A stretch of 32,000 nt of DNA from Methanothermus fervidus DSM 2088 (GTDB lineage Archaea; Methanobacteriota; Methanobacteria; DSM-2088; Methanothermaceae): contig CP002278.1 of assembly GCA_000166095.1 (NCBI GenBank), forward strand, positions 660,001 to 692,000, written 5' to 3'. This document shows, one piece after another, positions 16,413 through 30,093 of the stretch (the first letter of the stretch is position 1; every line of letters begins with the position of its first letter). Under the pieces are notes generated by a model. That model did no database searches, was not told the DNA's origin, and saw only the letters and a list, made by a program, of their open reading frames with translations. The translations under genes were made by a program, and so were the position numbers.

Positions 16413-18274
16413 TTTCCCCAATTTTTTATTTCTTTTAAAAATTTTCCTTTTCCTACTCTTTCCATAACTGCAGATAATCTTTCCCTTTGTGGTTTTTCGG
16501 CATATTTACTGTATACATTTAGTACAGCATCGATTAACTCCAATATTTTATCTTCATTGTCAATGATTCCGATGTCTATTCCCTCAACAATTTCACGTCC
16601 TGATTTCCCGCCTATATATAATCTATATCCTTCATCTTTAACTTCTCTTCCTTCATTAGGACATGCATCAATGCATTTGCCACATCCTATACATAGATTA
16701 TAATTTGTGTACGATGTTTCTCCTCTAATGTCGATTGCCTCAACTTTACAAACTTCTGCGCATCTTCCACATCCATTACATTTTTCTTCGTTTATAAGTG
16801 GATATCTAACTCCTGCTACTCCTATATCATGAATTTGTGGTCTTACACATTTATTTGGGCATCCACTTATTGCAATTTTGAATTTATAAGGTGAAGGTCT
16901 TTCTTTAAATTTATCTTCAATTTTTTGTGCAAGTTTTTTAGTATTTATTATACCGCTTCCACAATTATCTTTTCCTGGACAGGCAAGGGTTGCTCTTACA
17001 AGAGGACCTTCTGACCCTGTTATCAGTCCTTCTTTCATTAACTCCAAAACCACATCTTCAACATCATACCCTGCTATGCCATGTATTTCAAATCCACCTC
17101 TATTTGTGATTTTTAAATTAGCATCATATTCCTTAACTATTTTTAATATTTTTTCGACTTCATCAATATCGTACCATCCACCTGGTCTTGCTCTAATCCG
17201 TATAAAGTATGTGCCATCTGCTCTTTTACTTACTCCTGGATAACAATCTGTCCAATAAAATGATACTTTTTTATTTTTTCTTTTTCTTTTTTTGATTTCT
17301 TCTTTAAATCTTCTGATTTTTAAACTTTTTAATTTTTCAATCGATTCGATATCTACACCTTTTCTTAATTTTACAGCGTTTTTAATTTCCTCTCCTTTTT
17401 TTGTCCTTATTATTATCGTTGAATATCCTTCTGGACTTCCAACAGACCCTACTGAAACATCAGCCATTTCAGAATCAAAATCCCTACATATTTTACATCC
17501 AGAACATACATCCAATTCTTTTAGAGGAATTTCATGTTTCTCATTTTTAAGATACACGAGTAGTTTATTCCCCTTAATATCAAATTTTTCTACTTTCTCA
17601 ATATCTATCCCATGTTTTTCCAAAGTTTCATAAAAAGAATCATGTTCAAATTTTTCCATGCAGAACAATCCAATTAAATATTTTATTTTTGGTAATGAAG
17701 TAGGTTTCCCATCTTTACCTAACTCTCCATCATATTTTGCTAAATATGGGAAATATTGGATTTTTCTTAACCCTTGTATTTGACAAGGCAATCCAACAAC
17801 TGCCACTTCTTTACATCCAATCTCACTTGCTTTCTTGAGGGCATCTAATGTTGACACCGTATATTTTGACTTTGCAGATTTTTCAATGTCATCTGGATCT
17901 TTTATAATCCATGAAGTAGGTTTCCACAATTCATCTCCAACTACAATTGCCCCATCAATTTTTCTCTTTTTTAGCAAATACTTCAAGAAAGTTGATACTA
18001 CTCCACCATCCTGACCTTTTACATCTCCTTTCCCATAAAAAAATTCTTTTTTGAAACTTTCTCTAATTTTGATTTGATATCCACCAGATGATACACGAGG
18101 ACATATGTCATAACACATTCCATTTCCCTTTCTTAAACATTCTTCAATAAGTTTTGGATGATTCTCAAAATCCAATAGATCATTTGGACAAACTACAACA
18201 CATGTTCCACACTTAGCACATAATTCTGTATCTACAATTTCATCTTTTAATTTCCATTCCCATTGATGTGTCAT
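16403..18274 (-). CDS. fsr: Coenzyme F420-dependent sulfite reductase Fsr (FrhB/FpoF-like N-half fused to Dsr-like siroheme sulfite reductase C-half)
   Basis: N-half has ferredoxin [12 protein letters not shown] plus FrhB-like blocks. C-half has siroheme/[4Fe-4S] motifs ([20 protein letters not shown]) with an inserted ferredoxin ([23 protein letters not shown]). ATG 18274 (MTHQWEWKL...) is preferred over TTG 18292 because GGGG lies 8 nt upstream. The 3' end overlaps fdhB convergently by 10 nt. Confidence 0.85.
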
Positions 18275-18318: not shown

Positions 18319-18332
18319 GATATAAATACTTT
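18319..18332 (-). promoter_or_regulatory. fsr promoter (BRE/TATA: AAAAGTATTTATAT on the minus strand)
   Basis: The AAAnnTTTATATA-type methanogen promoter consensus lies about 45 nt upstream of ATG 18274. The same 14-mer recurs in both pyrC-flanking repeat arms. Confidence 0.5.
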
Positions 18333-18601
18333 TCAACTCTTGTTTCCTAATTTGCAAAAGACTTTTCACTAATAAAGTTAAATTTTTTGATTATTTTTGT
18401 TATGTGTTTGTAAAACATCGTATCTTTAACCTTTAGACCTCTGATGCCGGCAAGAAATCCCGAACATCCACAAACCATTTTAAAAATTTTTTGAATTTTT
18501 TACAAACAGAATTTTTAAAAAATAAAAAAATAAAAAGAAGATTGAAATTGATTTTGTGAAAAACCAGATTTCCACTCTATCAGGGATTGAGAGAAAACAG
18601 A

Positions 18602-18616
18602 AAAAGTATTTATATA
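18602..18616 (+). promoter_or_regulatory. Distal BRE/TATA-like element pointing toward pyrC (AAAAGTATTTATATA)
   Basis: Matches the methanogen AAAnnTTTATATA consensus. The expected TSS is near 18640, about 300 nt upstream of the pyrC ATG. Confidence 0.5.
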
Positions 18617-18737
18617 GATGAAGTACAAAACTAGCACTTGTTCTAAAAAAATATACACAACTCTTCTTTTACTTCCTCTTTCTCTCTCCAAAAATGCTCT
18701 AGAAATTAAGAAAACTATATATATCCTTTCATACTAC

Positions 18738-18744
18738 TTTTTTT
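18738..18744 (+). terminator. T7 run inside the pyrC leader (candidate attenuator/terminator of a short leader RNA)
   Basis: TTTTTTT lies about 100 nt downstream of the predicted distal TSS. Oligo-T tracts are the archaeal intrinsic termination signal. Confidence 0.3.
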
Positions 18745-18945
18745 CATGAGATGACTTCCCATACAATTACAAAGCTGAAAAAAACTGGTAGGTAGTTAAG
18801 AAGGTCTAAATGCATTAAAAGGATTAAAAATAAGTTAAGAGATTATATATCAGCATTTAAGACACTGTTGAGGGAATAGAGTAACCTTGATAGCCTGTAG
18901 GCAAGTTTTCTTTAGAAGTAGGAAGCTCTGTAGGAGTAGTTCACC

Positions 18946-20235
18946 ATGGTGGACCTATGTATTAAGAATTGCAAATTAAATGGAAAAATTGTAAATATTG
19001 GGGTTGAAGATGGCAAAATAATAAAGATCAGTAAATTACCATTTAAAAATTGTGAAACAATAGACATAAAAGGTAGAATAATATTCCCAGGCTTGATTGA
19101 TGCACATGTACATTTTAGAGAACCAGGAATGGAATATAAAGAAGACTTTAAAAGTGGATCAATGGCAGCAGCGCATGGAGGATTTACAACGGTTCTAGAC
19201 ATGCCAAATACAAAACCTCCCACAAATACTTTAAAAGAATTTAAAAGAAAGATTAAACTTGCATCTAAAAAAAGTATTGTGGATTTTGGATTACATGCTG
19301 GTGTAAATTTACAAGAAGTCCAAAAAATTGTAAAGTTAAGTCCAGCTTCTTTTAAAATTTACATGGAAGACACGAGTATAAACACTATAAAAAAAATGTT
19401 TGATATTTTAAATTCAACAAATATCCCACTTACTTTTCATTGTGAAAAAAGAGAAATTAATTATGAAAGAGATCACAGAGGAAAAAGTCCTCATTTTTAT
19501 TCAGATGCAAGACCTACTATAAGTGAGGAAATTGCAGTTGCAGAAGCTGTTTCATTTTCAGCTCATTATAATCATCCTATACATATATGCCATTTAAGCT
19601 CAAAAAAAGCTTTAAAAATCATAAAAAATATGCGAAATTTAGCACCAGTTACATGTGAGGTTACACCTCATCATTTATTTTTGGATTCAAGTTATTTCAA
19701 CAAATTTGGCAGTTTTGTAAAGACAAATCCCCCACTACGGTCTAGAGAGGAAGGTATAAATATTAAAGACTTAAATGATATCGATATTATTGCTACTGAT
19801 CATGCTCCACATACTTTAGATGAAAAAGAAAAAGAATTTTGGGAAGCACCAGCAGGTATACCTAATCTTGAAGTATCTTTAAAATTATTTTTAACTTTAT
19901 TTGCAAAAGGTAAAATTAAATTAAATGAAATAAAAACTATGTTTTGCGAAAAACCAGCAACTATTTTTGGTTTAACTAATAAAGGTTTTATTAAGGAAGG
20001 CATGGACGCAGATTTTGTTGTCATAGATCATAAAAAAACTGGTAAGATAAGTGCTGATGAATTTTATAGTAAGGCACAATATACACCTTTTGAAGGTTTT
20101 GAATATATTGGAGAAGCAGTAATGACCATACTTCGCGGCAAAGTAATTATGGAGGAAGGTGAAGTATTTAAAAATAAAGGTAAATATGTCAGGAGTGAAT
20201 ATAGGCTACCTCCTACAGAGCTTCCTACTTCATAA
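18946..20235 (+). CDS. pyrC: Dihydroorotase
   Basis: 429 aa. The metal-binding GLIDAHVHFREPG motif, ...GGFTTVLDMPNTKPP, DHAPH and the overall amidohydrolase layout are typical of class I DHOase. SD AGGAG (18932-18936) lies 9 nt upstream of the ATG. Confidence 0.9.
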   Translation: MVDLCIKNCKLNGKIVNIGVEDGKIIKISKLPFKNCETIDIKGRIIFPGLIDAHVHFREPGMEYKEDFKSGSMAAAHGGFTTVLDMPNTKPPTNTLKEFKRKIKLASKKSIVDFGLHAGVNLQEVQKIVKLSPASFKIYMEDTSINTIKKMFDILNSTNIPLTFHCEKREINYERDHRGKSPHFYSDARPTISEEIAVAEAVSFSAHYNHPIHICHLSSKKALKIIKNMRNLAPVTCEVTPHHLFLDSSYFNKFGSFVKTNPPLRSREEGINIKDLNDIDIIATDHAPHTLDEKEKEFWEAPAGIPNLEVSLKLFLTLFAKGKIKLNEIKTMFCEKPATIFGLTNKGFIKEGMDADFVVIDHKKTGKISADEFYSKAQYTPFEGFEYIGEAVMTILRGKVIMEEGEVFKNKGKYVRSEYRLPPTELPTS

Positions 20236-20617
20236 AGAAAACTTGCCCAGAGACTATATCTCTATAAGAGACAATCCTGAGTAGAGCATTCTCCTAAACA
20301 GGCAGTCAAAACTACCTTATATCCTCAACAATACTCTATATAGACTTATTCTTACATGTTAGAAAAATAATTATAAACATGCCTATAAATCTCCAAAGTT
20401 TCCAATAGTTTATCTTCTGTTCTTTGCTTAATAAACTTCTGAATTTATATAGCTATATCTTATGAAGAAAAGTGGTATATTATGCTTTTCTTTTTTCTAA
20501 ATATTAATTTGCTTTGGAGAAAGAAGGAGTGAGAGAGTTGTGTATATTTTTTAAAACAAGTGTTATTTTGTACTTCATCTATATAAATACTTTTCTTATT
20601 TCTCAATCCCTGATAAG
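20206..20617. repeat. Right arm of the long imperfect inverted repeat flanking pyrC (begins inside the last 9 codons of pyrC)
   Basis: The reverse complement aligns with 18577-18940. It carries a 47-nt insertion (20247-20293) relative to the left arm. Confidence 0.85.
20580..20594 (-). promoter_or_regulatory. Second copy of the BRE/TATA-like element, oriented toward the 3' end of pyrC (antisense)
   Basis: The minus strand reads AAAAGTATTTATATA, inside a 29-nt block identical to 18602-18630. No ORF lies downstream of it on the minus strand. Confidence 0.4.
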
Positions 20618-20624
20618 CGAATAT

Positions 20625-20630
20625 AAAAAA
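20625..20630 (-). terminator. Oligo-T terminator of the dph5-methyltransferase-FAH operon
   Basis: The minus strand reads TGAGTATTTTTTAT directly after the FAH stop (20634-20636). Confidence 0.4.
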
Positions 20631-20633
20631 TAC

Positions 20634-21404
20634 TCATTGAGACTTAACATAATTTCTTAAAATTCCTATAGATTCTATTTCTGCTTCGACAATGTCACCA
20701 GGTTTCATTGGACCTACTCCTGGAGGAGTACCAGTTGCTATTATATCTCCTGGTAGGAGTGTCATAACACTTGATATAAATTCAACAAGTTCATTTACTT
20801 TAAATATCATTTTTGAAGTGTTTGAAAATTGTTTAGTTTTGCCATTTAACCTAAGAGATATTTTTTGTTTATGTGGATCCATTTCTGTTTCTATAAAAGG
20901 GCCTAAAGGACAAAAAGTGTCAAAACTTTTTGCCCTTGTCCATTGACCATCCTTTCTTTGTATATCACGTGCTGTAACATCGTTAACAATAGTATATCCA
21001 CCAATTACATCCCAGGCATCTGAAGCATTTACATTTTTTGCTTTTTTTGAAATTACGACACCTAACTCAACTTCATAATCTACCTGCTTTGAAATTTCTG
21101 GATAAACAATAGTATCTTCATGTCCTATTACACTTGAAGGTGGTTTCAAAAATAAAACTGGTTCTTCCGGTATTTCCATATTTAATTCAGCAGCATGATC
21201 TCTATAATTAAGACCAACACAAACAATTTTAGATGGTGATACTGGAGGTAAAATTTCAATATTTTTAAATGAATAAGTTTGAGATTCTATTATTTTAAGA
21301 TCGCCATTCAAAGCATCTATGATATTTTCAATTTCAACTATTTCATCACCAGCTATATATCCTGATTTTATAGCACCGTTGTCTTTAAATCTTAGAAATT
21401 TCAT
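20634..21404 (-). CDS. Fumarylacetoacetate hydrolase (FAH) family protein
   Basis: 256 aa. The motifs KIVCVGLNYRDHAAE, EVELGVVI, GYTIVNDVTARD and LLPGDIIATGTPPGVG are diagnostic of the FAH/HpcE-type fold. Confidence 0.85.
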   Translation of the reverse strand: MKFLRFKDNGAIKSGYIAGDEIVEIENIIDALNGDLKIIESQTYSFKNIEILPPVSPSKIVCVGLNYRDHAAELNMEIPEEPVLFLKPPSSVIGHEDTIVYPEISKQVDYEVELGVVISKKAKNVNASDAWDVIGGYTIVNDVTARDIQRKDGQWTRAKSFDTFCPLGPFIETEMDPHKQKISLRLNGKTKQFSNTSKMIFKVNELVEFISSVMTLLPGDIIATGTPPGVGPMKPGDIVEAEIESIGILRNYVKSQ

Positions 21405-21976
21405 GTTTTTCCCTCTCTTTGTAATTTTCTAGCGGTGACGATGTAATGGTATTTACCTAATTTGTCAATATTTTCAATTTTAAAGCCATAAGAATTTAAA
21501 ATTTCAACACATTTTTCTTCACTTATTTTTAAATTTTCAGGAGGTCCTGCTGGTTTATCAACTCTAAAATCAACTATTATAAGTTTTCCTTTTGGTTTCA
21601 AGACCCTATTTATTTCTTTCATTAGCTCATCAGTTTTTTCATTTGCTACAATACCATGAAGAACATTTGCCATGAAATATATATCAACAGAATTTTCCTC
21701 AATTGGTATTTTCTTAGTAATGTCAGCTAGAATTGCTTTAACTTTAATATTTAAATTCTTTATTTTTTCTCTAACTTTCTTTATCGATGGTTCATGTATA
21801 TCAACAGCATATACTTCTCCATTTTTACCTAATTTTTTAGCAACCTCAATAGAAATAAAACCATTGCCGCATCCGGCATCTAAAAATCTTTTGCAACCTT
21901 CCATCTCAATTTTATTTAAAACTTCTTTAGCATTGAGATATTTTTCAGAACTTTTACCATAGTCACAATGTTTCAC
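21401..21976 (-). CDS. Class I SAM-dependent methyltransferase
   Basis: 191 aa with SAM-binding motif I FLDAGCGNGFISIE, post-I acidic VYAVDI and motif LKPKGKLIIVDF. It has 4-nt overlaps with both neighbours. Confidence 0.75.
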   Translation of the reverse strand: MKHCDYGKSSEKYLNAKEVLNKIEMEGCKRFLDAGCGNGFISIEVAKKLGKNGEVYAVDIHEPSIKKVREKIKNLNIKVKAILADITKKIPIEENSVDIYFMANVLHGIVANEKTDELMKEINRVLKPKGKLIIVDFRVDKPAGPPENLKISEEKCVEILNSYGFKIENIDKLGKYHYIVTARKLQREGKT

Positions 21977-25324: not shown

Positions 25325-25341
25325 TTTTTTAGGTGATAGGG

Positions 25342-26619
25342 ATGTCAATATTAATAAAAAATGCAAAAATTGTCGATGTTAAAGGTACAAGGAAAGGATC
25401 TATTCTTATTGAAGATGATAAGATAGTAAAGATAGGTGATATAAGAGAAGATGAAGGAGATAAAATTATAGATGCCAGCGACAAGTTGGTTATTCCTGGA
25501 TTAATTAATACACATACACACTTATCTATGACGTTGTTTAGAGGTATAGCTGATGATTTACAGCTGCATAAATGGTTAGAAAATTATATTTGGCCACTTG
25601 AAAAACATTTAAATGAGGATTATTGTTATGCTGGTGCACTTCTTGGATGTATAGAAATGATAAAATCTGGAACAACAGCATTTAATGATATGTATTTTTA
25701 TATGGATTCTGTTGCAAAGGCAATTGAAAAATGTGGTTTGAGGGCTGTTATAAGTCATGGGATGATTGATTTAAATAACGAAGATAAAATGAAAAAAGAA
25801 ATCAAAGAATCTAAAAGGATTGTAAAGAAATGTCATGGGATGGCAGATGGTAGAATATCGGTGGCTTTAGGTCCTCATTCTCCTTACACTTGTTCAGAAA
25901 AATTACTTAAAAAAACTTCAAAATATGCTAATAAAAATAATTTAAAAATACACATACACGTTTCAGAGACAAGAGAGGAGATTAAAACAATTAAAGAAAG
26001 GTATGGGATGAGACCGTTTGAATATTTAGATGACATAGGCTTTCTAGGTGAAAATGTAATAGCTGCACATGCCGTATGGCTTTCAGAAGAAGAAATCAAA
26101 ATAATTAAAAATAATAATGTGAAAATATCCCATAACCCTGTGAGCAACATGAAACTTGCCTCTGGAATTTCACCTGTTAGTAAAATGTTAGATGAAAATA
26201 TTACTGTATCTTTGGGCACTGATGGTGCAGCATCTAATAACAATCTTGACATGTTAGAAGAAATGAAGATAGCAGCTTTATTACAGAAAGTTCATTATTT
26301 AGATCCAACAAAATTGTCAGCAAAAGATGTTTTTGCAATGGCTACTATAAATGGTGCTAAAACACTTGGAATAAATGCAGGACTGATCGAGGTAGGTAAA
26401 AAAGCAGACTTAGTGTTAATAAATGTAAAGAGATGTAATTTAACCCCATTTAGGAATCCAATTTCACATTTGGTATATTCAGCTAATGGTTACAATGTCA
26501 CAACAGTTATTGTAGATGGAAAAATATTAATGGAAGATAATGTTGTTCAAGTAATTAACGAAAAAGAAGTGATGGAAATCGCAGAAAATGCAAGTGATGA
26601 ATTATTATCAAAGTCATAG
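25342..26619 (+). CDS. mtaD: 5'-methylthioadenosine/S-adenosylhomocysteine (5'-deoxyadenosine) deaminase
   Basis: Amidohydrolase with GLINTHTHLSMTLFRG, HVSET, AHAVWL and GTDGAASNNNLDM motifs typical of MtaD/DadD. ATG 25342 is preferred, with AGGTGA 5 nt upstream. Confidence 0.85.
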   Translation: MSILIKNAKIVDVKGTRKGSILIEDDKIVKIGDIREDEGDKIIDASDKLVIPGLINTHTHLSMTLFRGIADDLQLHKWLENYIWPLEKHLNEDYCYAGALLGCIEMIKSGTTAFNDMYFYMDSVAKAIEKCGLRAVISHGMIDLNNEDKMKKEIKESKRIVKKCHGMADGRISVALGPHSPYTCSEKLLKKTSKYANKNNLKIHIHVSETREEIKTIKERYGMRPFEYLDDIGFLGENVIAAHAVWLSEEEIKIIKNNNVKISHNPVSNMKLASGISPVSKMLDENITVSLGTDGAASNNNLDMLEEMKIAALLQKVHYLDPTKLSAKDVFAMATINGAKTLGINAGLIEVGKKADLVLINVKRCNLTPFRNPISHLVYSANGYNVTTVIVDGKILMEDNVVQVINEKEVMEIAENASDELLSKS

Positions 26620-27326: not shown

Positions 27327-28310
27327 TTGAAACTTGTAAAATGGAAAGATAATCCTATTTTATCTCCTACAGACGATAAATGGCAAAATTTCCAAACATT
27401 TAATGCAGGAGCCATTTTAATTGATGATACTATCCATATTTTCTATAGAGCTATTGGTGAAGATTTTATATCAAGAATTGGATATGCAAAAAGTAAGGAT
27501 GGTATAAATATTGAGGAAAGAAGTTCTTCCCCTGTTTTTGAACATTCCTATCCTTCTCCATTCAACAATAATAGGAATTTAATACCTAATTCTGGAGGAA
27601 GTAGATATGGAGCTGAAGATCCACGTGTAGTTAGGGTAAATAATGATAGGAATTGGAGATGGAAAAACCCTCTTCTTTTATCTCCTATGAATGGAATACA
27701 TAAAAATTGGGTCATATTCCCTGAAAAAATAGGGAAAAGGTATGCAATATTACATACAATATCACCAGAAGTAGATATAGAATATTTAAAGAATTTAAGA
27801 TGTCCTGAAGACATTGAAAGTTATCATTGTCCATTGCCAAAGTTTGGATGGGAAATGTGTGTTAAAGGAGCTGCAGCTCCTCCAATGAAAACAAAAGAAG
27901 GATGGCTTCTCCTTTTTCACGCTATAGGCAAAGACGGATACTATAAAATTGGAGCAATGTTACTTGACAAGAAAAATCCTACTGAAATAATATCTTGTTC
28001 TAATGGACCAATTTTAGAGCCAAAAGAAAATTATGAATTCAGTGGCATAAAACCAGGAGTTGTTTATACAACAGGCGCTGTTATAAAAAATTCTAAACTT
28101 TTGGTATATTATGGAGCTTCAGATACATATCTTTGTGTTGCATATGCAAATATAGATGAGTTTGTCGAAAGTTTATTAGAGGAAAGAGGATGCTATTATG
28201 ATGAAGATGTTAGTAAAAAGATTCAAAGGAAACCCTGTTTTAGAACCAGACCCTCACAGTCCCTGGGAAAGCGAAGCTGTATTCAATGGATGCCCGGTGA
28301 AGAAAAATGA
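27327..28310 (+). CDS. GH130 (DUF377) beta-propeller glycoside phosphorylase/hydrolase-like protein, module 1 (with internal deletion)
   Basis: TTG start. Family blocks are NPILSP...FNAGAI, IHIFYRA, GYAKSKDGINIEERS, GAEDPRV, FPEK, AAPPMKTKEGWLLLFHA, YKIGAMLLD and YYGASDT. It is paralogous to the two modules of the next gene. Confidence 0.7.
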   Translation: MKLVKWKDNPILSPTDDKWQNFQTFNAGAILIDDTIHIFYRAIGEDFISRIGYAKSKDGINIEERSSSPVFEHSYPSPFNNNRNLIPNSGGSRYGAEDPRVVRVNNDRNWRWKNPLLLSPMNGIHKNWVIFPEKIGKRYAILHTISPEVDIEYLKNLRCPEDIESYHCPLPKFGWEMCVKGAAAPPMKTKEGWLLLFHAIGKDGYYKIGAMLLDKKNPTEIISCSNGPILEPKENYEFSGIKPGVVYTTGAVIKNSKLLVYYGASDTYLCVAYANIDEFVESLLEERGCYYDEDVSKKIQRKPCFRTRPSQSLGKRSCIQWMPGEEK

Positions 28311-30093
28311 CAAAATATATTTTCTTTATAGGGCAATGACGCGGAAAAATAAAAATGGAGTTTCTATTTCACAGATAGGCATTGCTGAAAGTTACGACGG
28401 TATCAGTTTTCATAAAAGGAGATTGCTAATAACTCCTGATACTCTTTGGGATTGTTTTGGTTGTGAAGATCCAAGAGTTACAAAATTAAATAATAAGTAT
28501 TATGTATTTTATACAGCTCTTTCTCATTATCCACCAAGACCAGATGGAATCCGTGTAGGACTTGCCATAACTAAAAATTTCAAAAAAATTGATAAAAAAT
28601 ATTTGATTACACATTTTAATGCAAAGGCAATGGCATTGTTTCCAGAAAAAATAAATGGAAAGATATGGGCAATTTTAACTGTACATACAGACCTTCCACC
28701 AGCAAAAATATGTTTAGCATCTTTTAATAATGAAAAGGAAATTTGGTCTCGTGAATATTGGTATAAATGGTACCAAAAATTTGAAGATTACAGTTTACCT
28801 CTACAGAGAAGCAGTGATGATCATATAGAAGTTGGAACTCCACCATTAAAGACACCTTATGGTTGGTTGTTAATCTATTCTTACATAAAGAATTATTTTT
28901 CTGAAAAAGAAAGACTTTTTACAGTTGAAGCAGTATTGCTAGATTTAAAAAACCCATTTAAAATAATTTCAAGGACTAATTTTCCAATTCTTATACCTGA
29001 AGAATATTACGAAAAGACAGGAATTGTATCTGATGTTATATTTCCAAGTGGCGCATTTATTAAAAATAATGTAATTTATTTATACTATGGTGCAGCAGAT
29101 ACAACATGTTGTTTAGCATTCATTGATTTACCTTTTTTAATAAAAACAATGAAACATGGAAAAATCAAAATGAAAAGAGCAGCAAAACGTCCTATAATAA
29201 CACCTATTATTAAACATAAATGGGAATCCAAAGCTACATTCAATCCAGGAGCTATATATCTAAATGGCGAGGTTCATATAATATATAGGGCACTATCAGA
29301 AGATAATACTTCTGTTTTTGGTTATGCAAAAAGTAAAGATGGCATAAATATTGATTATCGATCGTCAGAACCTATATATACGCCAAAAGAACCTTTTGAA
29401 AATAAAAAATTTCCAGATGCGGCCTCTGGCTGCGAGGATCCTAGATTAACAATAATTGATGACAAAATTTATATGTTGTATACAGCATTTGATGGAGAAA
29501 TACCTAGAGTAGCAATGACATCAATAGATGTAAATGATTTCTTAGAGCAAAATTGGAAGTGGGCAAAAGCAAAAGTAATTTCTCCTTTAGATATTCCGGA
29601 TAAAAATGCATGTATATTTCCAGAGAAATATGCTGGAAAATATATAATTGTACATCGTTTAGATGATTCTATACATTATAGTCTTTGTGAAGATTTAAAT
29701 ATTGTGAAGGAGCTTGATGATAATAAATGGATATCACCAAGAAAAAGTATGTGGGATTGCGTAAAAGTTGGAATTGCAGCGCCGCCAATAAAAACTAATA
29801 ATGGGTGGATTTTATTTTACCATGGAGTTGACAAAAACAAAGTTTATAGGGTTGGAGCCTTGCTCTTAGAGTTAGACAATCCATTGAAAATCATACGTAG
29901 ATCTATGTATCCAATTCTTGAACCAGAAATGTGGTATGAAAGATGGGGAATAGTCCCAAATGTAGTGTTTCCTTGTGGAGCAGTGAAAATAAATAAAGAT
30001 ATTTATCTATATTATGGTGCGGCAGATACTGTTGTAGGCGTGGCTAAGATTAAAATAAATGATCTATTTTGGCACCTTGGTGTTAAATTGTGA
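28198..30093 (+). CDS. Tandem double GH130 (DUF377) beta-propeller protein (modules 2 and 3 fused)
   Basis: 631 aa with two full repeats of the GH130 pattern. Module 2 is about aa 1-325 (GCEDPRV, YYVFYTA, YYGAADT). Module 3 is about aa 326-631 (GCEDPRL, IYMLYTA, YYGAADT). AGAGGA lies 7 nt upstream of the ATG. Confidence 0.75.
   Translation: MMKMLVKRFKGNPVLEPDPHSPWESEAVFNGCPVKKNDKIYFLYRAMTRKNKNGVSISQIGIAESYDGISFHKRRLLITPDTLWDCFGCEDPRVTKLNNKYYVFYTALSHYPPRPDGIRVGLAITKNFKKIDKKYLITHFNAKAMALFPEKINGKIWAILTVHTDLPPAKICLASFNNEKEIWSREYWYKWYQKFEDYSLPLQRSSDDHIEVGTPPLKTPYGWLLIYSYIKNYFSEKERLFTVEAVLLDLKNPFKIISRTNFPILIPEEYYEKTGIVSDVIFPSGAFIKNNVIYLYYGAADTTCCLAFIDLPFLIKTMKHGKIKMKRAAKRPIITPIIKHKWESKATFNPGAIYLNGEVHIIYRALSEDNTSVFGYAKSKDGINIDYRSSEPIYTPKEPFENKKFPDAASGCEDPRLTIIDDKIYMLYTAFDGEIPRVAMTSIDVNDFLEQNWKWAKAKVISPLDIPDKNACIFPEKYAGKYIIVHRLDDSIHYSLCEDLNIVKELDDNKWISPRKSMWDCVKVGIAAPPIKTNNGWILFYHGVDKNKVYRVGALLLELDNPLKIIRRSMYPILEPEMWYERWGIVPNVVFPCGAVKINKDIYLYYGAADTVVGVAKIKINDLFWHLGVKL

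Follow-up and report, generated by a model that had tools for sequence, protein, structure and literature searches.

In the icaR mRNA of Staphylococcus aureus, a 3' segment pairs in cis with the Shine–Dalgarno (SD) region and blocks the initiation complex (Ruiz de los Mozos et al. 2013, PMC3868564). Here, we analyzed a 32,000-nt stretch of the genome of the archaeon Methanothermus fervidus DSM 2088 (contig CP002278.1, positions 660,001 to 692,000; hereafter the window, with positions counted from its first letter), in which the pyrC gene likewise shows extended complementarity between its SD region and the 3'-terminal segment of the same gene. The two cases differ in scale and setting. The icaR pairing relies on a short UCCCCUG motif in a long 3' untranslated region (UTR) and is an RNase III substrate, whereas the partner strand in pyrC is 37 nt long with one bulged base and lies mostly in the coding sequence. 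Furthermore, the pyrC stem appears to have arisen by an inverted duplication that also copied the promoter, belongs to a hyperthermophilic archaeal host and is known here from sequence prediction. To our knowledge, archaea mostly lack RNase III.

A looser archaeal parallel is found in haloarchaea, where translational regulation needs the 5' and 3' UTRs together (Brenneis & Soppa 2009, PMC2636863). In that case, a functional interplay of the UTRs was deduced from reporter fusions, with no long perfect pairing demonstrated, and it concerns other genes, other organisms and another mode of initiation; haloarchaeal transcripts are largely leaderless or devoid of an SD, unlike pyrC. As a kind, the mechanism considered for pyrC has a bacterial precedent in icaR and a looser archaeal one in these haloarchaeal genes.

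Three further systems are relevant for comparison. First, in work reportedly from the Turnbough and Neuhard laboratories in the early 1990s, the enterobacterial pyrC and pyrD leaders are said to form a hairpin that hides the SD, controlled by CTP/GTP-sensitive start-site switching. The gene and the end point are the same, with an SD hidden in a helix (predicted here) and lowered translation, but the enterobacterial element is a short local 5' hairpin set by the start nucleotide, whereas the partner strand in M. fervidus lies 1.27 kb away at the gene end. Second, the processing stems of archaeal rRNA and tRNA likewise consist of long inverted repeats that flank a transcribed gene and form a long-range helix; those stems carry a bulge-helix-bulge and enclose a stable RNA, whereas the predicted pairing of the pyrC arms lacks the motif and the arms enclose an mRNA. 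Third, Ranz et al. reportedly described in 2007 inverted duplications generated by staggered breaks at Drosophila inversion breakpoints, by which a single-copy breakpoint segment becomes two inverted flanking copies, and pyrC resembles this situation in its sharp repeat ends and changed neighbors. We know of no staggered-break inverted duplication documented in archaea.

Our tentative reading, which we favor but place somewhat short of probable, is that the locus is an inverted duplication whose product would be an icaR-like stem that occludes the SD and brakes translation. What is new in this case is how large and how perfect the stem is, that it spans the stop codon, that it originated in an inverted promoter-leader duplication and that its host is a hyperthermophilic archaeon. 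If the stem forms and acts, cis pairing between the 5' and 3' ends of an mRNA, so far shown in a few bacterial mRNAs, would extend to archaea and to 83 °C; a single step, the inverted duplication of a leader, could suffice to create such a device; and RNA complementarity rather than protein function could dictate a C-terminal tail and stop codon. The pyrC locus would then offer a simple system for the interplay of ribosome helicase, termination and re-initiation on a prokaryotic mRNA. With an inert stem, the locus would still be a clean example of a breakpoint inverted duplication that rewrote the end of a housekeeping gene.

Complementarity and inverted duplication at pyrC

The pyrC product is called dihydroorotase in both NCBI and UniProt, matches Pfam PF01979 (Amidohydro_1) at 1.3e-24 and belongs to the amidohydrolase superfamily; it is 64–66% identical to PyrC of other Methanobacteriales, with the HxH, K, H, H and D columns invariant. 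Direct comparison of the two ends of the gene shows that 18900–18936 is the reverse complement of 20210–20247, save for one extra A at 20232. The segment 18901–18936 reads GCAAGTTTTCTTTAGAAGTAGGAAGCTCTGTAGGAG, and its reverse complement corresponds to 20210–20246 plus one base, in agreement with the complementarity claimed by the initial annotation of this DNA. Two exact blocks make up the pairing: 18915–18936 with 20210–20231 (22 nt), and 18900–18914 with 20233–20247 (15 nt). The initial annotation gave the first helix correctly and the second as 14 bp, one pair too few; it had also rightly located the AGGAG SD in the 5' strand, 9 nt before the ATG, and the codons for PPTELPTS with the TAA in the 3' strand. 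Read from 20209, these codons are CCT CCT ACA GAG CTT CCT ACT TCA TAA. When up to three mismatches are allowed, the 22-mer occurs at two sites in the window, which are the two helix strands, and in none of 100 shuffles. The half that covers the SD (20210–20231, 22 bp) lies entirely within the pyrC coding sequence, and would therefore survive even if the 3' end of the mRNA falls at the stop codon. The coordinates of all features are given in Table 1.

Table 1. Features of the pyrC locus in window coordinates
Feature	Position	Strand	Basis or remark
pyrC, dihydroorotase, 429 aa, ADP77496.1	18946..20235	+	Pfam, alignment, database name; exact match
IR-L, upstream arm, pyrC promoter-leader	18578..18936	+	Alignment to reverse complement of 20210-20615
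IR-L outer conserved block	18578..18664	+	~90% identical to IR-R; exact 15-, 29- and 19-mers
T7 tract	18738..18744	+	Inside IR-L; candidate archaeal oligo-T terminator for outer-promoter transcripts
Proximal TATA-like box ATTATATA	18842..18849	+	7/8 match, 104 nt before ATG
5' helix strand	18900..18936	+	Weaker extension back to 18890
Shine–Dalgarno AGGAG	18932..18936	+	9 nt before ATG 18946; wholly within predicted helix
3' helix strand	20210..20247	+	Last eight codons PPTELPTS, TAA 20233-20235, 12 nt trailer; A20232 unpaired
IR-R, downstream arm, inverted promoter-leader copy	20210..20615	-	Alignment
IR-R-only segment, 49 nt	20258..20306	-	Directly outside perfect block; IR-R insertion or IR-L deletion
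T4-C-T6 tract	20486..20496	+	First strong oligo-T after pyrC stop
IR-R outer conserved block	20532..20615	-	BRE/TATA on minus strand, TATA 20587-20580; candidate antisense promoter
FAA-hydrolase protein, ADP77497.1			Exact match
Fsr-like protein, ADP77495.1/WP_048060563.1	16403..18292	-	Exact match

The C-terminal tail of PyrC, which had been regarded as a by-product of the repeat, looks to be exactly that, since the ortholog alignment shows no conserved tail. The conserved core ends in ...G-K-Y-V-R-S-E-Y; beyond it, the closest homologs (64–66% identity) add 2–5 unrelated residues, and M. fervidus adds ten, RLPPTELPTS, the last eight codons being exactly the portion encoded by the downstream repeat arm. 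Identity to the leader extends to every third-codon position of the eight tail codons and to the 12 trailer bases, and protein selection cannot account for it. Judging from the sequence, pyrC has exchanged its native 3' end for the downstream arm; as a result, the last eight codons, the stop codon and the first 12 trailer bases are antisense to the leader. A20232, the sole flaw in the 37-nt duplex, supplies the in-frame TAA; with this base removed, the frame runs on for 17 codons (TCT AAA GAA ... TAG).

The pairing had been described as an isolated 36-bp element. Instead, the block is the inner end of a 360–400-bp inverted duplication with a second inward-facing consensus promoter, which recasts how the pairing may have originated and brings in explanations at the level of DNA and of antisense RNA. 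Two inverted copies of the pyrC promoter-leader flank pyrC in the M. fervidus lineage: an upstream arm of ~359 nt (IR-L, 18578–18936) and a downstream arm of ~406 nt (IR-R, 20210–20615). In the alignment of IR-L to reverse-complemented IR-R, 283 of 431 columns are identical. The ends of the repeat are sharp, with z values relative to shuffles of 1.1 beyond the inner end and 0.6 beyond the outer end, and continuation of the repeat into the coding sequence was rejected given that the inner flank aligns no better than shuffles. No other inverted repeat of comparable quality is present in the window.

Identity is distributed unevenly along the arms. The outer 87 nt are ~90% identical (26–28 of 30 positions per 30-nt segment over the outer 90 nt), the middle is ~60% identical with many indels (12–20 of 30 per segment), and the inner end is identical at 36 of 37 positions (27/30 and then 11/11 in successive segments). 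The middle is homologous still, with z = 5.0 for its outer and z = 2.6 for its inner part. This profile excludes uniform neutral decay of a single duplication.

Both arms carry a promoter that points inward to pyrC. The outer B recognition element (BRE) and TATA box of IR-L read AAAAAGTA-TTTATATA, with the TATA box at 18609–18616 (perfect, 8/8) and 337 nt before the ATG, and those of IR-R read GAAAAGTA-TTTATATA, also perfect, on the minus strand. In IR-R the BRE/TATA is conserved together with ~30 nt upstream and ~48 nt downstream. The SD copy of IR-R is followed by no start codon and no open reading frame (ORF). Small ORFs within the arms were rejected as real genes: the ATG at 18618 precedes the expected transcription start, and database searches returned no record for the 43-residue ORF.

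Several smaller sequence features lie in or beside the arms. The fsr promoter, GAAAAGTATTTATATC, has its TATA box 52 nt before the start codon and a 15-mer in common with the repeat's promoter block (18320–18334 versus 20581–20595 and 18602–18616), which suggests a strongly stereotyped BRE/TATA consensus in the M. fervidus genome. At 20248–20306, the 49-nt segment specific to IR-R opens with a further copy of the GATAGCCTGTAGG motif in degenerate form; the same region contains a small AGAGA/TCTCT palindrome just past the pyrC stop and resembles a local tandem duplication. The pyrC leader block has two directly repeated copies of CTGTAGG, at 18895–18901 and 18927–18933, 32 nt apart; the outer copy reads CTCTGGG in IR-R, and the motif may be a protein-binding half-site or a chance occurrence. 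IR-R begins 18 nt past the stop codon and T6 terminator of the convergent FAA-hydrolase gene.

The predicted stem and translation of pyrC

M. fervidus grows optimally at 83 °C, and at this temperature the duplex between the pyrC 5' and 3' regions has a predicted energy of -22.4 kcal/mol. The corresponding duplexes of the other 25 genes in the window range from -0.3 to -4.2 kcal/mol, and 650 mismatched 5'/3' pairs gave a mean of -2.0 kcal/mol with a standard deviation of 1.0 and a minimum of -6.2 kcal/mol, which places pyrC ~20 standard deviations beyond the window background. We folded three models of the full-length mRNA (18878–20300, 18878–20498 and 18640–20498) at 37 and 83 °C. In every minimum-energy fold, 35–36 of the 36 helix pairs are present, so the SD-occluding helix that had been postulated for the full-length mRNA does appear in the predicted folds at both temperatures. 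The total at 83 °C is -35 to -39 kcal/mol, most of which comes from the stem. Folded separately, the leader (18873–18975) and the 3' region are each predicted to be without structure at 83 °C (0.0 kcal/mol); nothing local would thus compete with the stem, and nothing else would mask the SD. In these models, the stem is the only stable structure predicted for the ends of the pyrC mRNA.

Other RNA structures were considered. A local hairpin of the enterobacterial pyrC type is not predicted at 83 °C, as the fold of the isolated leader shows. The initial annotation had pointed to a bulge-helix-bulge recognizable by the splicing endonuclease, and co-folding of the arms at 37 and 83 °C returned loops of (0,1), (1,1), (1,50) and similar, and no such geometry; a processing or circularization stem of this class was consequently rejected for lack of a 3-nt bulge, 4-bp helix and 3-nt bulge. 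Rfam 15 at gathering thresholds gave 0 matches across the window, and a permissive search gave one chance-level match within the coding sequence (E = 0.63).

The stem can form only if the mRNA contains both strands. The 3' half that pairs with the SD is certainly included, and the 5' strand is present if transcription begins upstream of ~18900. TATA-like boxes before pyrC are found only at -337, -230 and -104, compared with 52–59 nt for the other operon-first genes in the window. As each of these boxes is at least 104 nt from the ATG, a long leader that includes the 5' helix strand is to be expected. From the usual TATA-to-start spacing of ~26 nt we infer a pyrC start near 18870–18875, just upstream of the helix strand. 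Archaeal transcription terminates at oligo-T tracts, and on this general ground the T7 tract inside IR-L probably stops most transcripts from the outer promoter, in which case the -104 box would be the working pyrC promoter. Downstream of the gene, the T4-C-T6 tract is the likely pyrC terminator, which would imply a 3' UTR of ~255 nt.

Other genes in the window have SD sites of the GGAGG/GGTGA type 5–9 nt before their start codons, and SD-led initiation is on this basis the norm in the M. fervidus genome. Since initiation is SD-led as a rule, a closed stem should block 30S binding. The roles offered in the initial annotation, namely a panhandle, a processing stem and termination-dependent unmasking of the SD, remain conjectural. 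We propose the following sequence of events. Ribosomes would load on the free leader while pyrC is still being transcribed; once the last codons have been transcribed, the stem could close over the SD and block new initiation. A ribosome that translates the last eight codons and stops at TAA would have to melt the whole stem: its helicase would act ~11–13 nt past the P site and, with TAA in the A site, would reach close to 20245. The SD would thereby be freed directly beside the terminating ribosome. In this way, the stem would brake idle mRNAs and tie re-initiation to ongoing translation; the logic would be that of icaR, minus RNase III. It would not melt thermally within the growth range, and its openers would be the co-transcriptional window and translating ribosomes. 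More speculatively, an antisense RNA of leader sequence, made from the second inward promoter, could compete for the 3' strand.

A stronger version of this proposal holds that the arrangement is a selected closed-loop device, in which only a terminating ribosome unmasks the SD, idle messages are locked, and an antisense RNA identical to the leader tunes the lock. We consider this version unlikely; if true, it would be the first direct translational control by 5'-3' base pairing in archaea, and one built by an inverted promoter-leader duplication.

Strain variants, assembly breaks and competing readings

Variant strains, 0.3–0.6% diverged from the type strain, are represented in runs DRR667206, SRR24635347 and SRR28875795. 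A metagenomic M. fervidus contig from SRR24635347 that spans window 18869–20251 (L021) differs by eight transitions in 1383 nt. Four of them, namely 20215 A>G, 20217 A>G, 20221 C>T and 20235 A>G, fall in the 3' strand of the helix, and the 5' strand is unchanged; divergence in the 3' strand is thus 11% versus ~0.3% genome-wide. All four changes turn Watson–Crick pairs into G·U wobbles, and the stem is complete, at -20.1 versus -22.1 kcal/mol at 83 °C. The tail becomes PPAEFPTS and the stop codon TAG, which suggests that the amino acids of the tail are not constrained. The sister variant in DRR667206 (L006) does not have these changes, so the four changes are derived in SRR24635347. As a hint, they fit tolerance of substitutions that preserve pairing. 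Possible causes of the cluster are: local hypermutation; conversion from an unseen donor; and an artefact of the contig end. In SRR28875795, a contig covering ~20565–21469 (L024) shows two differences, 20565 A>G (the IR-L-type base) and 20570 G>A within the 29-mer, both at most 6 nt from the contig end.

Several points weigh against a stem that brakes translation. First, the wobble compatibility of the four L021 changes has p ~0.15 from base composition and is not significant, and the changes lie 17–37 nt from the contig end. Second, the outer promoter block matches between the arms about as closely as the inner block does, which mRNA pairing does not explain and which weakens the proposal; gene conversion, or a function of both promoters, might account for both blocks without any role for the stem. 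Third, coupled transcription and translation together with dense ribosome loading could prevent the stem from forming. Fourth, the repeat occurs in one species only, too few for covariation. Finally, a search of full-text literature found no M. fervidus transcript-mapping data. We know of no archaeon in which direct 5'-3' pairing has been shown to control translation.

Independent Logan assemblies (k = 31) of several runs share break sites around pyrC. The contig carrying fsr stops at 18594; that of pyrC extends from 18856/57 to 20583–20595; that of the FAA-hydrolase gene ends at 20574–20586; and no contig covering 18594–18856 was recovered. The runs are of different types: errors of homopolymer type appear in one of them, and MNase-seq data for M. 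fervidus have been published. No k-mer of 31 nt or longer is common to both arms, and the exact 29-mer at 20566–20594 falls at the right-hand break. The breaks might result from template switching between the arms, either in vivo or while libraries were prepared, from heterogeneous cultures or from unseen copies. Simple inversion, deletion and third-copy models were tried, and none matches all coordinates.

These breaks bear on a first alternative, namely that the locus is a neutral relic of an inversion or duplication, whose blocks are kept alike by gene conversion in patches or by templated repair, in either case from the functional upstream copy, and whose stem is incidental and outrun by coupled translation. 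One DNA-level process would then economically cover both the inner block and the promoter block, which is not transcribed, and breaks at exact-block boundaries (e.g. 20566–20595) hint at template switching or recombination between the arms. The lack of an ORF behind the SD of IR-R and the confinement of the arrangement to one lineage are also in keeping with a relic. However, two conversion tracts located exactly at the repeat ends, with an unconverted, indel-rich middle of ~60% identity, are not the simplest expectation, and the SRR24635347 variant, with four changes in IR-R and IR-L unchanged, indicates that the arms are not kept identical there. Moreover, for so strong a predicted stem, some effect on an SD-dependent mRNA would be hard to avoid. 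On balance, we regard a neutral relic as somewhat unlikely.

The second inward promoter raises another alternative, in which an antisense RNA is the functional unit: the IR-R promoter would make a leader-like RNA against the 3' UTR and 3' end of pyrC that acts by pairing or by transcriptional interference, and the cis stem would be secondary or would itself be the thing regulated. A perfect BRE/TATA that is conserved in IR-R and points into pyrC calls for a reason if the arm is otherwise unused. Minus-strand T4 to T5 tracts before the inner block (e.g. T5 at 20365–20361) may, however, stop the transcript early, and the two copies have neither a conserved secondary structure nor an Rfam match; we hold an antisense unit to be improbable. 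A structured small RNA made from the outer promoter was likewise rejected, the two copies having no consensus structure and no Rfam match.

Relatives, origin of the arrangement and neighboring genes

We compared the locus with those of Methanothermobacter tenebrarum, a second contig with a closely matching PyrC, and the metagenome-assembled genome (MAG) GCA_964621535.1. In all three relatives, a HIGH_NTase1 gene lies divergent to pyrC on its upstream side and a convergent gene on its downstream side, with gaps of 3–40 nt and 10–37 nt, respectively; the repeat was not found at any of these three loci. The predicted 5'/3' pairing at 65 °C is -3.7 to -7.7 kcal/mol in the relatives and -44.1 kcal/mol in M. 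fervidus. In M. fervidus, pyrC lies between fsr and an operon of FAA-hydrolase, methyltransferase and diphthine-synthase genes, with spacers of 650 nt and 400 nt. The different neighbors and spacers indicate that pyrC was relocated or rearranged and that the repeat is a derived feature; by this sequence comparison, the arrangement is lineage-specific. A search of metagenomes for the locus based on Fsr found no relatives that would provide synteny to separate insertion from inversion.

Most economically, the arrangement would have originated as an inverted duplication where a rearrangement broke the DNA. The event that brought pyrC to its site between fsr and the FAA-hydrolase operon probably created the duplication, and an inversion with staggered breaks would leave such an inverted duplication at its breakpoints. 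The downstream copy would then abut the conserved end of PyrC (…RSEY-RL), and the enzyme would read eight codons into leader antisense.

The changed neighborhood also bears on whether the arms are recombination substrates that produce flip-flop isomers, or the terminal repeats of a mobile cassette that carried pyrC in. The gene did move, judging from the neighbors in the relatives, and the independent assemblies break in or beside the arms (18594, 18856 and 20574–20595). Nonetheless, we regard this as very unlikely: the exact blocks reach no more than 29 and 22 nt; the breaks differ from simple inversion-junction predictions, e.g. the left break is at 18856 and not in a repeat block; and an inversion recreates an equivalent gene arrangement and would switch nothing. 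Domain searches identified no transposase, integrase, invertase or recombinase encoded in the 32-kb window, and the sequence shows no target-site duplication at the outer repeat ends. A mismatch-tolerant search of four blocks and a k-mer census of the window recovered the two arms only. One exact scan of metagenomes and two of viral sequences found no copy, and genome contigs scanned with a 21-mer of the promoter block gave one chance match, in a Cytophaga MAG. It is likely that no third copy exists elsewhere in M. fervidus, whose genome did not appear in the genome scan.

Two specific element classes were examined along the same lines. A miniature inverted-repeat transposable element, insertion sequence or composite transposon does not fit a locus with two arms only, no transposase domain and no flank duplication. 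A site-specific invertible switch does not fit either, as there is no recombinase and the arms are symmetric, so that inversion regenerates the same promoter-leader-pyrC order.

Outside the repeat, the gene for the Fsr-like F420-dependent sulfite reductase is annotated with 629 residues from a TTG in GenBank and with 623 residues from an ATG in RefSeq and Logan, and a variant strain carries an in-frame 6-nt deletion in it (17268–17273). Two overlapping ORFs on the same strand, 27327–28310 and 28198–30093, both match Glyco_hydro_130, the first in the C-terminal part of the domain only; the pair could reflect a tandem duplication, a frameshift within one gene or an incorrect choice of TTG as start codon. 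The gene for another amidohydrolase, of 428 residues (25333–26619; Amidohydro_1 at 5.5e-96), adjoins a TGT-domain gene at a distance of 5 kb from pyrC; its product is probably a deaminase of the nucleoside or adenosine type and not a PyrC paralog.

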